Sequence record: NC_029021.1
Origin: Enterobacteria phage JenK1
Strand: one strand, 5' to 3'
DNA: 60,747 nucleotides
Positions 4,807 through 24,813 of the stretch are shown piece after piece. The translations under genes were made by a program, and so were the position numbers. The first letter of the stretch is position 1. Each line of letters begins with the position of its first letter. A model generated the notes under the pieces. It saw only the letters and a list, made by a program, of their open reading frames with translations. It was not told where the DNA came from and did no database searches.

Positions 4807-5910
4807 ATGTCTAAAATTCTGTCAGCTCCGATGCTTAATTTGCGAGCTACCAATTCAATTCTTCTGTCTGCTGTTCGTCGTGGTGCGATCACTGAACTTG
4901 CAGATGTTATCGTTCCAGAGATCTTCGTACCGTATGTGCAGAACCGCACAACTGAAAAGTCCCGACTGATTCAGTCTGGTGCTATTGAGATTTCTGAGCG
5001 TCTTAACGCTGCATTGATGGGTGAAGGTACTACCTTTAACCAGCGTTTCTTCAAAGACCTGGATCGTGACGAAGAAAACGTTTCAAGCGCAAGCGATGCA
5101 ACCGATTCTACTCCTGGTGGTATCAAATCTGGGCGTGAAATTCAGATCCGTCTGTCCCGTAACCATTCATGGGGTTCTGCGGACCTGCTGGACAGCCTGA
5201 TCTCCCCTGACCCGCTGGACGCTATCATTAACTTAGTGGCAAGCTACCGTCAGAGCCGTCTGCAACGTGCATTCGTTGCAACTGTAGGTGGTGTGTTCGC
5301 TATGAACGCCGCTGCTCCGGCTGGTTCCGGTGATAAGAAGTCTACTCACGTTCAGAACGATATGACCCACGACATTTCTGGTTCATCCTTCGTTGATGGT
5401 GTGACTAACTTCAACCCGGCTGGTGTTATCCTGGCGGCTGGTACTATGGGTGACTCCCTGAACGACCTGTCTATGATGATGGTTCACAGTGTGGTCTACC
5501 AGCGTATGCAGCTAATGAACCTGATCGACTTCATCCCAGATGCTCGTGCTGAAGTAATGATCCCGACCTACATGGGCCGTGAGGTTATCGTTGACGATAT
5601 GATGCCGCATGAAAGCGGTAAATACGAAACCTGGCTGGTTGGTCGTGGCGCATTCCAGTTAGGTGTTGGTTCACCGAAAGTTCCTGTTGAAACTGAACGT
5701 AAACCTGCATCCTACAAAGGTGGCGGTTCTGAAATCCTGTTCCACCGCTGGGAAAACATCATTCACCCTGTCGGTCACGCATGGGTTGGTACTGCTGCTG
5801 AAGGTGGTCCGGATAACGCCGCTCTGAAAACTGCTACCAACTGGGCTCGTGTATTCCCTGAGCGTAAACAGATTAAGATTGCTCGCCTGATCACTCGCGA
5901 ACACGCTTAA
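4807..5910 (+). CDS. major capsid protein
   Basis: 368 aa from ATG 4807 (ORF-track start 4675 is TTG inside the structured leader); strong host-like codon bias (ctg, cgt, ggt, aac); follows scaffold gene and ends at a terminator. Confidence 0.7.
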   Translation: MSKILSAPMLNLRATNSILLSAVRRGAITELADVIVPEIFVPYVQNRTTEKSRLIQSGAIEISERLNAALMGEGTTFNQRFFKDLDRDEENVSSASDATDSTPGGIKSGREIQIRLSRNHSWGSADLLDSLISPDPLDAIINLVASYRQSRLQRAFVATVGGVFAMNAAAPAGSGDKKSTHVQNDMTHDISGSSFVDGVTNFNPAGVILAAGTMGDSLNDLSMMMVHSVVYQRMQLMNLIDFIPDARAEVMIPTYMGREVIVDDMMPHESGKYETWLVGRGAFQLGVGSPKVPVETERKPASYKGGGSEILFHRWENIIHPVGHAWVGTAAEGGPDNAALKTATNWARVFPERKQIKIARLITREHA

Positions 5911-19288: not shown

Positions 19289-19579
19289 TTATTTACAACC
19301 TTCAGACCAACCAACACGGTTCATAGCCGGTGAGCAATCAGGTTTGACTTTTTTACCTTTCATCCACTCAGCTTTAGCTTTACCAGCGGTAGTACCTTCG
19401 TAGATGGAAGTCTGGTGCTCAATGTTACTTACTCCACCAGTATGCCCGCCTAATGATGAACCACTACCAGGACCACCAGCTCCACCATTACCTGGACCAC
19501 CAGTACCACCGGAAGGACCAGTCGCGTAAGCAAACGTAGCAGTCATAGAAAGGATAATGGCGCAGATTAAAGTCTTCAT
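19289..19579 (-). CDS. secreted Gly-rich small protein (moron)
   Basis: Start at second Met (MKTLICAIILSMTATFAYA signal peptide) with AAGGAG RBS; Gly-rich mature region with two C-terminal Cys; opposite strand to flanking tail genes. Confidence 0.6.
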   Translation of the reverse strand: MKTLICAIILSMTATFAYATGPSGGTGGPGNGGAGGPGSGSSLGGHTGGVSNIEHQTSIYEGTTAGKAKAEWMKGKKVKPDCSPAMNRVGWSEGCK

Positions 19580-19610
19580 TTCGAACTCCTTTATGTTTGT
19601 GTGTAACAAC

Positions 19611-19665: not shown

Positions 19666-22600
19666 ATGGCAATTCGTTTACATGGTATTTTAGTTGATGG
19701 ATTGAATAAACCAATCGTCAATGCAAACGTCTTCTTACTTGCACGAAGCAATACTATTGTAGTTCTAGGTGGAAGTAAAGCGGTATTTAAGACCGATTCA
19801 CAAGGTGCTTACGACGTCACAGTGAACACCGGGCATTATGTGGTTATCATTGGACCAGAAGGTAAGGAACCATATAAAGCGGGTGACATTGTAATCTATG
19901 CAGATAGCCAGAACGGTTCACTTAACGCATATCTTACTAAATGGGCTCCAGAAGAAACCACACCTGAAATACTTCAGGAAATAAAGCAACTGGTGGCTAA
20001 CTCTGAGCAATTTGCATTGCAGGCGTCTGAATCTGCTGCTAATGCTAAGAAGAGTGAGCTTAACGCGGAGACAAGTAAAAACTCTGCTGCAACGGACGCA
20101 GCGTCAGCTCTGCTGTCAAAACAGGAATCTGCTGCTAGTGCGTCTTCCGCATTGCAATCCAAGAACGCTGCGGCTGGTTCTGCTACATCAGCTCAACAAG
20201 CTCTTACTGCTGTGCAAGGACTCAAAGCTGAAGTTCAGCAATTAAAAACCGACACGCAGCATATTAAAGAAGAGGGCGTCGCTGAAGTAACAGCTCTCAA
20301 AAATGCTGCAACTACTGCGGCTAACAATGCTAAAGCATCAGAAACTGCATCTGCTAATAATGCGACTTTGGCTGATACTAAAGCAAAGGAAGCGTCTGCA
20401 AGTGCAACCACTGCCAATCAAGCGAAAGTAGCTGCTGAGGCAGCAAAGGCCGCATCCGAAGCAAGCGCAGTTGAGTCCGCTACTTCTGCTGGTAAATCGC
20501 AGACCGCAGCTAATGCAGCTAAGGCAAGCGAGACGGTTGCAACACAGAAGGCAGCTTCGGCCTCTACGTCTGAAACTAATGCGGCAGCTTCCGCTCAGAC
20601 TGCGACTAGCAAAGCTGGTGAGTCTGCCGCTAGTGCTACCGCAGCTAAGGCAAGCGAAACTAATGCTAAGACTTCAGAAACTAATGCTGGTACATCAGCT
20701 GGAAGATCTGAGTCTGCTGCTTTACGCTCAGAAGCTGCTGCCCAACGTGCGGAAGACATCGCTGATGCAATTGGTCTTGAAGACGCAACTTTGACTGTCA
20801 AAGGTATCGTTCGTCTTAGCAATGATACTAACAGCACTGCTGAGAACCTGGCAGCTACACCAAAAGCTGTTAAAACAGTCATGGACGTTGTTAATACTAA
20901 AGCTCCGTCAAGCAGTCCTGTTCTAACTGGTGTACCAACGGCACCAACTCCAGCACCTGAAGTCAATAACAATCAAATTGCTACAACTCAGTTTGTACAC
21001 CAAATTATAAGCGCACTGATTGGTGATGCACCAGGCGCTTTAAACACTCTGAAGGAGTTAGCTGACGCTCTTGGCGGTGATCCGAATTTTGCAACGACGA
21101 TAACCACACTTATTAACAGTAAGTTGGCTAAAGATCAGAACGGTGCTGACATTCCTAATAAGCAATTGTTCATTGATAACGTTGGTCTACGCGAGACTGT
21201 CAACTTAGCTCTCGGTGCATTGAAGAAGAACCAAAACGGTGCGGATATACCGGACAAAGGTGTCTTCCTTAATAACATCAATGCTGCCAGCAAGACGGAT
21301 ATGGCCGCTAAGAAAGGCATGAAATATACTGTGGTCAATGCCCCAGCGGGGGTTGAAGCAGGTAAGTTTTATCCTGTTGCGATTCGTCGTTCTTCTGGAT
21401 TCAGCAGTGAATTAGCATCCAGGGTGACAATAAGTACAGGTTCAAGAACGGGAAACCATAGGCTGAACAACTGCGAGTTCAATGGTTTTGTTATGACTGG
21501 TGGTTGGACTGACAGGGGACGTTATGCTTATGGAATGTTCCACGCATATACTGCAAATGAACGTGCTATTCATTCCATTCTGATGAGTAATAAAGATGAT
21601 GATCTGTGCTCTGTGTTCTATGTCGAAGGTGAAGCGTTCCCTATTTCTGTATATGTAGAAGAAGGTTTATCTGTTGTTGTACCATCTGCCGACTATGTTG
21701 TCGGACAAACGACTTACAAATGGGGTGCTACAGACCCTAGAACAGAATGCGTGGCCACTGATACTGTACTTGATTTCTCCAATGGTAGAGGATTCTATAG
21801 TTCTCACGCTCTCCTCACAAATGTAGATATTAGTGGTGCCAGAATCTACGCTAACGGTGAAATCGTAGCTCGTGGTGAGAATCAAGTCCGCATGATTGGT
21901 GGAGACTATGGTGCATTATGGCGCAATGACGGTGCCAAGACCTATCTCTTATTTACCGCTAAAGGCGATCAATACGGTGGTTGGAACGATTTAAGACCAT
22001 TTATGATTGATAACGCTACCGGTGAGTTTACCATTGGTACTAAATTGAACGCCGGTCAAGGTGTGAATGGTAACGCATCCAGTGCTACTAAGTTACAAAC
22101 AGCGCGTAAGATTGGTGGCGCCTCGTTCGACGGTACTGCTGACGTCAATCTTCCAGGTGTTAACATTCAGGGTAATCAGAACACAACTGGTAATGCGGCA
22201 ACTGCTACCAAACTACAGACAGCACGTAGGATTGCCAATGTACCTTTTGATGGTAGTGGTGATATATCAATTCCACCTAGAAATGTGAATGCGTTTGCGT
22301 TAGGACTGACAGGTAGTATTAGTGTAGAAGATGATATAGATAACAACAGCGTTCCGTGGAATGCTATATCTGGTGTCTATAACCATCAGAGAAGGGGTAG
22401 CTCGGATCTTGTAGTTCACTTTTATCAACATACTGGTTCAACTCCTGCTTTACAGATAAGAGGTAACTATAAGAATGGTGGTATTTGGTATCGTACAGCG
22501 CGTGATGGCTATGGTTTCGAAGAAGATTGGGATCAAATTTACACTAAAAAGAACCCACCTCCTGTGGGTGAAACCTTACCTGTAGGTGTTCCATTACCGT

Positions 22601-23328
22601 GGCCTACAGATACACCACCGTCCGGTTATATTGTAATGCAGGGTCAACCCTTCGATAAAGCTGCATACCCGAAACTGGCTGCTGTATACCCAACGGGTGT
22701 ACTTCCAGATATGCGTGGTCAAACTATCAAAGGTAAACCAGCAAGCGGTCGTGACGTACTTTCTACAGAAGCTGATGGTGTGAAATCACATACTCACACT
22801 GCGTCTACTGCATCTGTCGATCTTGGAAGCAAGACAACTTCTAGCTTTGATTATGGTACTAAAGGGACAAGTAGTTTCGACTACGGTACTAAGACGAGTA
22901 ATAATACTGGTGCGCATACACATGGTATTAGCGGAACAGCAAATAGTGCAGGTGGGCACCAACACCAGAGTTCTGGACCATATGCGAATTCTAGTGATAG
23001 TGATCTCTTTCCTAACGGTTATACCCAGGTTTCAGCCACAAACAAACCAGTTGTACCACGGCAAGGTGGCGCAGGTATGACCCGTGTATCAGGGAAGACA
23101 TCATCAGATGGTGCTCATACCCACTCGCTGTCCGGTAGTGCCGCAAGCGCAGGTGCTCACGCACACACTGTTGGTATTGGCGCGCATACGCACTCAGTCG
23201 GTATTGGTGCTCATAGTCATACAGTCGCTTTAGGTTCGCACAGCCACGGTGTTACAGTTAACGCAACTGGTAACACAGAAAACACTGTTAAGAACGTTGC
23301 ATTCAACTATATTGTGAGGGCTGCTTAA
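19666..23328 (+). CDS. stf: side tail fibre protein (lambda Stf-like)
   Basis: 1220 aa; N-terminal domain, long Ala/Ser/Thr-rich repeat region, and C-terminal GAHxH repeats ending [16 protein letters not shown], which matches the lambda Stf C-terminus as recalled. Confidence 0.85.
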
Positions 23329-23905
23329 TGTCTTTTGAAATGAGTAATGAAGACCAGACTGTAACTGTGTACGACTACTCCAATGATACGGGCGAATATG
23401 TGGGAACCCGTGAAGCGTATGTGGTGGCCAACACAGGTCTTCCAGCATGTTGTACTGATATGGAGCCTCCAGTGGCTCCAGAAAATCATGTGGCGATTTT
23501 TAAAATAGACAGCGAAGTATGGATTTTGCGTGAGGACCATCGAGGGAAAGTCGTATACGATAAAAATACAGGACTTCCTTTAGTGATAACCACAATTGGA
23601 TCACTCCGGATAATGTGACCTATATCGCTCCCAACGGCGAGTATATGAAGTGGAACGGCGATATGTGGGTGGACGACCCGGATGCACAACGTGCTAAGTT
23701 GGTTGCGGATGCAACACAACATAAAACAGATCTTCTTAATTTAGCAGATTATAAAATCAGTATTCTGCAAGATGCTGTGACTTATAATCTAGCTACTGAC
23801 GAAGAAAGTTCGATGTTGGAATCGTGGAGAAAGTTTCGTGTACTTGTGAACCGCATAAACGAAAACGATCCACAGAATATTATCTGGCCTGAGTCTCCAG
23901 AATAA
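23328..23905 (+). pseudogene. tfa: tail fibre assembly protein gene (tfa) split by a frameshift at about 23604-23606
   Basis: ORFs 23328-23618 and 23615-23905 together align colinearly with lambda Tfa as recalled; continuity is restored by a -1 shift after CTC at 23604-23606. Confidence 0.6.
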
Positions 23906-23944
23906 TACCTGTCGTAGTGACCTCCATTAGCTTGATATAAATAA

Positions 23945-23987
23945 TTATCCGCTGTAAGTCCAACGACCAGCGGATAATTTTTATTTT
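23945..23987 (+). terminator. intrinsic terminator after tail fibre module
   Basis: 10-bp stem ttatccgctg / cagcggataa, 13-nt loop, then TTTTTATTTT. Confidence 0.7.
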
Positions 23988-24099: not shown

Positions 24100-24813
24100 A
24101 TGTCTGACATGACTCTTATTCCGGGCGGTTTGGGTGGCGGTTTCGGTGGTGAAGCTGGCGCAGCGGCCGTTGGCGGTGGTATCGGTGGCTTAATCGGTTC
24201 GTGGATCGGAAATGGTTGGGGTGGCAATGTCGGTTGGGGTGGTCGCGGCGGTTGGGGTGGTGGTGTCGGTGAAGTCCAGGCTTCCGTAGATACTAACGCA
24301 ATTCTGCAAGCCATCAATAACGGCAACCTGCAAAACATCCAGGGCCAGAACGGTACTAACCTGACTGTCGAACGTTCTGCGGCGTCCACCTTCAACGGTA
24401 TTACTCAACAGAACACTCAGAACATGCTGGCTTCCGTTCAGGGCTTTGCTGGTCTGAACACTGAAATTCGCACTGGTACAGCGTCTGTCGTAGCTGCTGT
24501 CAATGCTGCGGATGTAAACGCGTTGAACCGTTCCTTCCAGGCTCAGTTAGCTGCTCAGGAATGTTGCTGCGAGACCAACCTGAACATCGAACGTCAAGCG
24601 AACGAAACCCGTGGCCTGATCCGCGATCAGTTTGCTCAGTCTCAGGCTGTTCTGATCTGTGATCTGAAATCTCAGTTGCAGGAAGCTCGCTTTGCGAACT
24701 CCCAGCTTCATCAGACCGCTCAGATCGATTGTAAGATCAATCAGGTTGCACAGCTCGTTAACTTCAAACTGCCAACCCCTCCGACTCCGCCGACTGGTTG
24801 TTGTGGTTGCTAA
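24100..24813 (+). CDS. Gly-rich N-terminal / Cys-containing hypothetical protein
   Basis: 237 aa; N-terminal 60 aa dominated by GG/GW repeats, Q/N-rich middle, CCC and C-terminal GCCGC; strong host-like codon bias; bracketed by terminators. Confidence 0.6.
   Translation: MSDMTLIPGGLGGGFGGEAGAAAVGGGIGGLIGSWIGNGWGGNVGWGGRGGWGGGVGEVQASVDTNAILQAINNGNLQNIQGQNGTNLTVERSAASTFNGITQQNTQNMLASVQGFAGLNTEIRTGTASVVAAVNAADVNALNRSFQAQLAAQECCCETNLNIERQANETRGLIRDQFAQSQAVLICDLKSQLQEARFANSQLHQTAQIDCKINQVAQLVNFKLPTPPTPPTGCCGC

Follow-up and report, generated by a model that had tools for sequence, protein, structure and literature searches.

Does phage JenK1 carry a working gene for tail fibre assembly? In the JenK1 genome (NC_029021.1; the whole stretch of 60,747 nucleotides is referred to here as the window), two adjacent ORFs lie downstream of the side (lateral) tail fibre gene, stf. 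An earlier note on this DNA, made from the letters alone, had taken the two ORFs for the N- and C-terminal parts of a lambda-type tail fibre assembly gene (tfa) that is split by a single-nucleotide frameshift, and had offered an inactivating mutation (a pseudogene, like stf in laboratory lambda), a sequencing error or an unusual recoding event as explanations. The inactivating mutation is favoured by the analysis described here, while the other two are contradicted (see below).

JenK1 is a virulent Nonagvirus (Queuovirinae, the 9g-like phages). Among the relatives in the database, HdK1 and HdSG1 are nearest (~98% identity), followed by 9g, PD328 and ESCO3. The phage came from animal faeces and was isolated on E. 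coli K-12 MG1655. Its DNA was taken directly from one plaque and sequenced by Illumina MiSeq at >100x, and assemblies from CLC and SPAdes were cross-checked (PMC4505120).

Layout and identity of the split gene

The side tail fibre gene is intact (Table 1). Its product has Pfam matches to phage_tail_N, Gp34_trimer, gp37_C and Collar, and its counterparts in 9g and PD328 are annotated as side tail fiber. The TAA stop codon of stf overlaps the ATG of tfa (TAATG at 23326-23330). The JenK1 gene is therefore located directly downstream of its own fibre gene, as is typical of the Tfa family, and in lambda Tfa, T4 gp38 and Mu TfaMu the gene likewise follows and overlaps the fibre gene. Another family trait, a single uninterrupted ORF of about 185-210 codons, is absent in JenK1 (96 + 96 codons), which differs from these three systems in that the frame is broken at codon 94.

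Table 1. Features of the stf-tfa locus of JenK1 (coordinates of the window) and the intact alleles used for comparison
Feature	Position	Strand	Description	Basis
stf, side (lateral) tail fibre gene	19666..23328	+	1220 aa, intact	ORF list; Pfam
ORF1, 5' part of tfa	23328..23618	+	96 aa from ATG; ancestral codons 1-93, then R I M and TGA	
ORF2	23615..23905	+	96 aa from GTG, -1 frame; frame open from about 23558	
3' part of tfa, -1 frame	23606..23905	+	ancestral codons 94-192 and stop	ORF list; Pfam
Frameshift site	23606..23607	+	1-nt deletion in codon P94	alignments; survey of 28 loci
Hairpin (ATCCGCTG ... CAGCGGAT), then T-run	23947..23987	+	likely terminator	read from sequence
Predicted junction-region peptides			IGSLR/IM, truncated product; IGSLPDNVTYIAPNGEYMK, frameshifted or intact product	
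Intact allele, L011			61-kb contig (ERR13332283) encoding the exact repaired 192-aa Tfa	
Intact allele, L012			1.3-kb contig (SRR9598217) encoding the exact repaired 192-aa Tfa	
Other loci with single-ORF tfa			9g, PD328, L013-L020, L026, L027, L033, L034; also L031 (called product 192 aa)	

The C-terminal region of Stf (residues ~1080-1205; 22900-23290, + strand) contains repeated G-x-H-x-H motifs, in the series GAHTHG, GGHQH, GAHTHS, GAHAHT, GAHTHS, GAHSHT and GSHSHG. These repeats resemble the metal-binding needle of T4 gp37, and are consistent with a dependence on a gp38/Tfa-type chaperone.

The 96-residue product of ORF1 (coding positions 23328-23615) is recorded in GenBank as 'tail fiber assembly' (AKA61063.1 / YP_009219303.1, by exact-sequence look-up). 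The 3' end of this ORF reads GGA TCA CTC CGG ATA ATG TGA, corresponding to G91, S92 and L93 followed by R, I, M and the stop codon. In the -1 frame, the codons from 23606 are CCG GAT AAT GTG ACC (P D N V T). ORF1 and ORF2 are in frames 0 and -1, respectively, and share a 4-nt overlap, with the GTG at 23615 overlapping the ORF1 stop codon as GTGA. The candidate independent starts for the 3' part are this GTG and the ATG at 23645, the latter being the start of the 86-residue GenBank product AKA61064.1. The reading frames bear out the proposal of the earlier note that a -1 shift after CTC (23604-23606) rejoins GSL to PDN, and the joined protein reads ...IGSL-PDNVTY... across the junction.

The joined protein of 192 residues is collinear with lambda Tfa (residues 1-191, 43.5% identity, tblastn E value of 5e-51), which confirms the assignment of the two ORFs as the N- and C-terminal parts of a lambda-type tfa. 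A tblastn search with this protein finds 429 phage records that cover at least 80% of the query, with hundreds of single-ORF Tfa genes. The repaired protein matches the Pfam family PF02413 (Caudo_TAP) with 111.3 bits (E value of 4.7e-32; residues 72-192 on profile positions 1-131), and ORF2 alone has a score of 95.6 bits (profile positions 35-131), the cut-off being 22.1 bits. ORF1 alone has no match in the local Pfam copy at E <= 0.001; a precomputed match to PF28596 (Caudo_TAP_N) is present for its exact product and for all close homologues.

The C-terminal helices of JenK1 Tfa match the Mu chaperone TfaMu in a sequence search (5YVQ_B, E value of 6e-9), with TfaMu residues 113-175 matching the conserved C-terminal helical region of JenK1 Tfa. 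A Foldseek search of the Protein Data Bank with the AlphaFold model of JenK1 Tfa gave no significant match (best E value of 0.54), and a missing match for the N-terminal β domain is expected of a variable fibre-binding domain. No match to JenK1 tfa was obtained by megablast in 5,426 complete E. coli genomes, and this gene thus lacks a close prophage comparator.

The hairpin downstream of tfa is likely to be the terminator of the stf-tfa transcription unit. It was placed by eye and from the HdSG1 and HdK1 records, where a terminator is annotated at the matching position. The simple terminator scan, limited to loops of <=8 nt, missed this hairpin because its loop is longer than 8 nt.

The missing C and the intact alleles

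The two reading frames are separated by the loss of one nucleotide. JenK1 has CC at 23606-23607 where the intact alleles have CCC (CTCCGG versus CTCCCGG), and the corresponding sequence in 9g and PD328 is CTCCCGG or CTTCCGG. The deletion was placed by alignment with 9g, PD328 and 14 further contigs. The split of JenK1 tfa by a 1-nt deletion is thus confirmed far beyond chance, and the main claim of the earlier note is right.

Adding one C at this position produces a protein of 192 residues that is found letter for letter (P0008) in two public assemblies (L011 and L012 in Table 1). The extra C is the only difference between L012 and JenK1 over 1,323 bp. In L011, it is the sole difference in the segment 23131-23975, and the flanking regions differ by ~1 per 40 nt. 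It follows that the CCC to CC deletion postdates all other substitutions in tfa. The earlier note had also considered that an extra C might be found to restore a single ORF. This does not hold for the JenK1 record itself, which has CC, and is true only of the other samples, L011 and L012. These two contigs show that the intact allele circulates alongside the frameshifted one and does not replace it.

An uninterrupted tfa of 579 nt is observed in at least 16 related contigs (Table 1), some of which were reached through their DNA polymerase. IMG/VR, metagenome contigs of JGI/ENA and GTDB genomes were searched with a degenerate pattern that spans the site and allows a gap of variable length. The deletion was found in none of the 8 matching contigs, and all 8 have the in-frame spacing. 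The 90%-identity cluster of the repaired Tfa has 205 members, and nearly all of those read have 192 residues. Moreover, no natural split pair is seen among 62 homologues, all of which are single two-domain proteins or partial fragments. The reliable relatives thus have one ORF here and not two genuinely separate genes, the situation that the earlier note had said would overturn its reading.

Purifying selection on tfa, taken as a single reading frame, is equally strong in the two halves. The dN/dS ratio is 0.081 for the entire gene, with values of 0.073 in codons 1-93 and 0.089 in codons 94-192 (Nei-Gojobori, 11 distinct alleles).

Several of the related contigs are found in bacterial assemblies. 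L020 (NZ_MPDK01000069.1, 2204 bp), with a tfa at 1454-2032 on the minus strand that is 91.5% identical to that of JenK1 (RefSeq WP_181363207.1), belongs to the assembly of 'Sulfoacidibacillus thermotolerans Y002', an acidophilic Firmicute, and a coliphage tfa in this assembly looks like contamination. L033 (GCA_013943165.1) and L034 (GCA_013840925.1) are near-complete Nonagvirus genomes in contigs of 58-59 kb, from isolate assemblies of Shigella sonnei and Shigella boydii, respectively. More than 100 blocks of public assemblies contain the DNA polymerase protein of JenK1 without any change (P0012-P0014). It is very common for virulent Nonagvirus phages to be sequenced together with enterobacterial isolates.

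Sequencing error and recoding

It is very unlikely that the JenK1 genome truly has CCC and an intact tfa, with the CC being an error of sequencing or assembly. The difference is a single base in a short homopolymer, a CCC allele that is identical elsewhere is known (L012), and related records, for example that of HdK1, demonstrably carry many indel errors, all of which would be compatible with such an error. However, the JenK1 record is based on Illumina MiSeq data at >100x and two assemblers (CLC and SPAdes), and de novo assemblies of six other runs (SRR9598210-15) contain the CC allele at 100% identity. In addition, a comparison of the ORFs with those of the related records indicates that the essential genes are unsplit in JenK1, unlike in HdK1.

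The contigs from the six runs encode the exact products of ORF1 and ORF2, and are 100% identical to JenK1 over 1.0-3.0 kb, including the CC. Their serial numbers reach ~173,000, from which we infer that the runs are from complex samples and not from a pure lysate. The six runs may share their origin with the original JenK1 stock; full-text literature searches for the SRA/ENA run accessions found nothing. With the identical CC allele in six further runs and the Illumina record, there is little room for an assembly artefact at this position, and a sequencing error is contradicted.

The SRR95982xx contigs (L005-L012) repeatedly end at ~22606-22636 and ~23932-23961, flanking the stf tip and tfa. 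This suggests that these samples contain several related phages that differ in their neighbouring modules, and that the break positions are mosaic junctions.

The two closest database relatives also have indels in tfa. Alignments show an extra G at codon 21 in HdK1 and a TC insertion in HdSG1, 5 nt upstream of the JenK1 site and giving the same -1 frame downstream. The study that reported HdK1 and HdSG1 used PacBio RSII or Illumina sequencing (PMC6563267). Compared to JenK1, the HdK1 record (MK373794.1; L023/L024) has dozens of isolated insertions of 1-2 nt, mostly homopolymer extensions (for example at the JenK1-equivalent positions 5886, 12064, 13225, 19977, 23390 and 48705). They split the genes for the major capsid protein, tape measure protein, primase/helicase and lysin and other essential genes, as well as stf and tfa. 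These insertions across the record are almost certainly a problem of sequence quality and not biology. The tfa indel of HdK1 is most likely an artefact as well, because dozens of similar insertions split essential genes of this phage, and the HdK1 frameshifts are unusable as biological evidence.

The HdSG1 record is much cleaner than that of HdK1, with few isolated frameshifting indels, including the insertion in tfa and an extra G in stf. The latter is located in a G-run (AAGTGGGGGGGCAAC; 6230-6250 of L021, equivalent to ~21720 in JenK1) and splits stf into two annotated CDS. HdSG1 (MK373795; Korf et al. 2019) is the closest sequenced relative (~98% identity), and its tfa, annotated as 'putative frameshift', is similarly split, into a 97-residue ORF and a C-terminal ORF, at nearly the same codon and with the same downstream frame. 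The two lesions are different, however, being an insertion of TC in HdSG1 and a deletion of C in JenK1, and the reality of the HdSG1 lesion is uncertain. The indels in stf and tfa of HdSG1 may reflect true decay of the fibre module or residual error, and that in tfa may be a PacBio artefact. Three independent inactivations of tfa, in JenK1, HdSG1 and HdK1, were considered and rejected as not solid, the HdK1 record being ridden with indels and that of HdSG1 uncertain.

The frame change might instead be made by the ribosome, in which case programmed -1 (or +2) frameshifting after L93 would allow the split gene to yield a Tfa of full length. In favour of this, the -1 frame is open from about 23558 through the junction, HdSG1 requires an identical change of frame at almost the same position, and L93 is followed by CGG, a rarely used Arg codon at which ribosomes could pause. 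A tail gene cluster with overlapping ORFs in frames 0 and -1 is also seen at the programmed -1 sites of phage tail genes, such as lambda G/GT (G GGA AAG). In comparison, JenK1 has no slippery heptamer and no conservation of the layout, and is one base away from a single ORF. Reading of the 0-frame codons throughout 23558-23618 finds no X XXY YYZ heptamer, and a tRNA-Leu on CUC is unable to re-pair on ACU. The segment 23596-23690 has a minimum free energy of -24.9 kcal/mol, against a mean of -24.4 for shuffled sequences (z = -0.15). Moreover, the two-frame layout is not conserved, with at least 16 relatives having a single frame, and the CCC allele is otherwise identical to that of JenK1. Since nothing else differs between the two alleles, there was no time for a recoding signal to evolve, and the one mutation that disrupted the frame would have had to create such a signal as well. 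Lacking a slippery site and a stimulatory structure, and with single-ORF genes in the reliable relatives, recoding fails as an explanation and is extremely improbable.

Predicted consequences for the side fibres

The most probable account of the locus, held with good confidence, is a recent and genuine loss-of-function mutation in tfa (CCC to CC), which leaves the side fibres unassembled or poorly assembled and is tolerated or favoured on K-12. The deletion at 23606-23607 ends translation from the tfa start after 96 residues. Tfa is expected to act as a chaperone of the lambda/T4-gp38 type, folding and trimerising the distal end of the side tail fibre. The T4 gp38 protein is essential for the folding of gp37, and can be replaced by lambda Tfa (PMC9659904). 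In PMC9608196, which summarises North et al. 2019, Tfa is described as having an N-terminal domain that binds the fibre tip and a conserved C-terminal helical domain for trimerisation. Tfa is not covered in the papers on the structures of Gifsy-1 and Ur-lambda.

The AlphaFold model of JenK1 Tfa (pLDDT of 93.8, built on 46 homologues) has β strands up to residue 116 and helices at residues 118-152 and 158-175. The break, between residues 93 and 94, is located in a loop with the nearly invariant residues G91 and P94, based on the model and the alignment of homologues. As a result, ORF1 is without the last strands, which include the invariant residues W109 and W114, and is cut off from the helical domain. 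This conserved G-x-L-P loop belongs to the β-rich N-terminal region, and the break within it, 24 residues ahead of the C-terminal helical oligomerisation domain, leaves the fibre-binding and trimerisation parts unconnected. With the predicted loss of the chaperone, side fibres would be absent or poorly assembled, despite an intact stf.

The two halves of tfa could still be functional if they are translated separately, by reinitiation at the GTG in GTGA (23615) or at ATG 23645, and associate non-covalently with enough chaperone activity. In favour of this, a weak GGA is found four nt upstream of the GTGA in which the ORF1 stop codon and the GTG of ORF2 overlap, a Tfa domain is still recognised in each ORF, and the CC allele persists in six complex samples. 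However, the GTG is a mere synonymous Val variant, which is GTA in most relatives, and therefore the GTGA arrangement has not evolved for this purpose. The break is inside the β region and parts the strands at residues 97-98, 107-109 and 114-116, together with the invariant W109 and W114, from the remainder. A natural split pair is found in 0 of the 62 homologues, and the mechanism proposed for Tfa, as given in PMC9608196, requires the fibre-binding and trimerising parts to be tethered. A working split of this kind is unlikely.

The CC and CCC alleles are found in different runs of one SRA accession series (CC in SRR9598210-15 and CCC in SRR9598217), which would be compatible with a polymorphism that segregates or is reversible. 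In a reversible system, the C-run would act with the adjacent TC repeat as a slippage-prone on/off switch of the side fibres, and both states would be maintained as bet-hedging between hosts or modes of growth. Both alleles in one run series, with otherwise identical sequence, are in line with such a switch, as are the HdSG1 indel, located in the same pyrimidine tract at a distance of 5 nt, and the indel hot spots and reversion of lambda stf (PMC2762979). On the other hand, known contingency repeats are far longer than the 2-3 nt of these tracts, and the site is varied among intact alleles (ATCTCTTC, TTCACTTC, GTCGCTTC and others), such that the tract is not conserved. In addition, the HdSG1 indel is possibly a PacBio artefact, and the off allele is present in 0 of 8 uncultured contigs. 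A switch at this site is highly improbable. There is a small chance overall that the CC/CCC site and the TC repeat of HdSG1 mark a reversible indel hot spot in natural Nonagvirus populations, or that the split tfa works as two polypeptides. If true, either would explain a 'broken' allele in six complex samples, beyond the plaque-purified stock.

For the favoured loss-of-function mutation, a precedent is found in lambda PaPa. A frameshift in the stf gene of this phage was reportedly described by Hendrix and Duda in 1992, in Science 258:1145. It is also covered in PMC2762979 and PMC12617516. As in JenK1, the frame of the stf-tfa module is shifted by a single base in a siphovirus that is maintained on K-12, and the wild relatives are intact. 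Lambda PaPa is still viable, the central J-type tip being sufficient, and JenK1 is considered to be alike in this regard. The gene that is hit is different, however, being stf itself in lambda PaPa and the chaperone gene tfa, with stf intact, in JenK1. Moreover, lambda PaPa is lambdoid and JenK1 is a virulent Nonagvirus.

Lambda frameshifts that remove the side fibres are frequent in plaques, give larger plaques and are revertible in liquid culture (PMC2762979), and small siphoviruses are believed to use their lateral fibres for binding to O-antigen and not to need them on K-12 (PMC8594841). JenK1 shares with the lambda cases its isolation from a plaque on a K-12 strain without O-antigen (MG1655), and fits the pattern of side-fibre loss, with a fibre phenotype that is predicted. 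The loss would be tolerated on this host, where lateral fibres are dispensable, and the CC allele may even have been favoured during plaque picking, as for the stf frameshift of lambda PaPa. The presence of the CC allele in six complex, non-clonal samples may indicate that it is not a mere artefact of plaque picking, and perhaps that it is not strongly deleterious.

As deposited, JenK1 is probably without working side fibres, and its host range or adsorption on E. coli strains with O-antigen may understate that of the wild type. The addition of one C at 23606-23607 should restore the wild type, and the CC/CCC allele pair is a ready-made isogenic test of the role of lateral fibres in Queuovirinae. 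JenK1 tfa is a fresh case of a known phenomenon, useful for annotation and for users of the phage, and the two tfa CDS in GenBank/RefSeq would be better annotated as one disrupted gene.

Two further ORFs flank the fibre genes. Between the J-like tip gene and stf, a Gly-rich ORF of 106 residues with a signal-peptide-like N terminus (19289-19609, minus strand) sits at the receptor-binding-protein locus, and its CAjan homologue is annotated as a lipoprotein. In the BASEL paper, this locus of JenK1, HdK1 and HdSG1 is unmatched to any known receptor. Just past the likely stf-tfa terminator is an ORF of 237 residues (24100-24813, + strand) with no recorded Pfam match, which has a Gly/Trp-rich N terminus, a Q/N-rich middle region and a C-terminal PTPPTPPTGCCGC tail, and which is conserved in Seuratvirus phages (~78% nucleotide identity).
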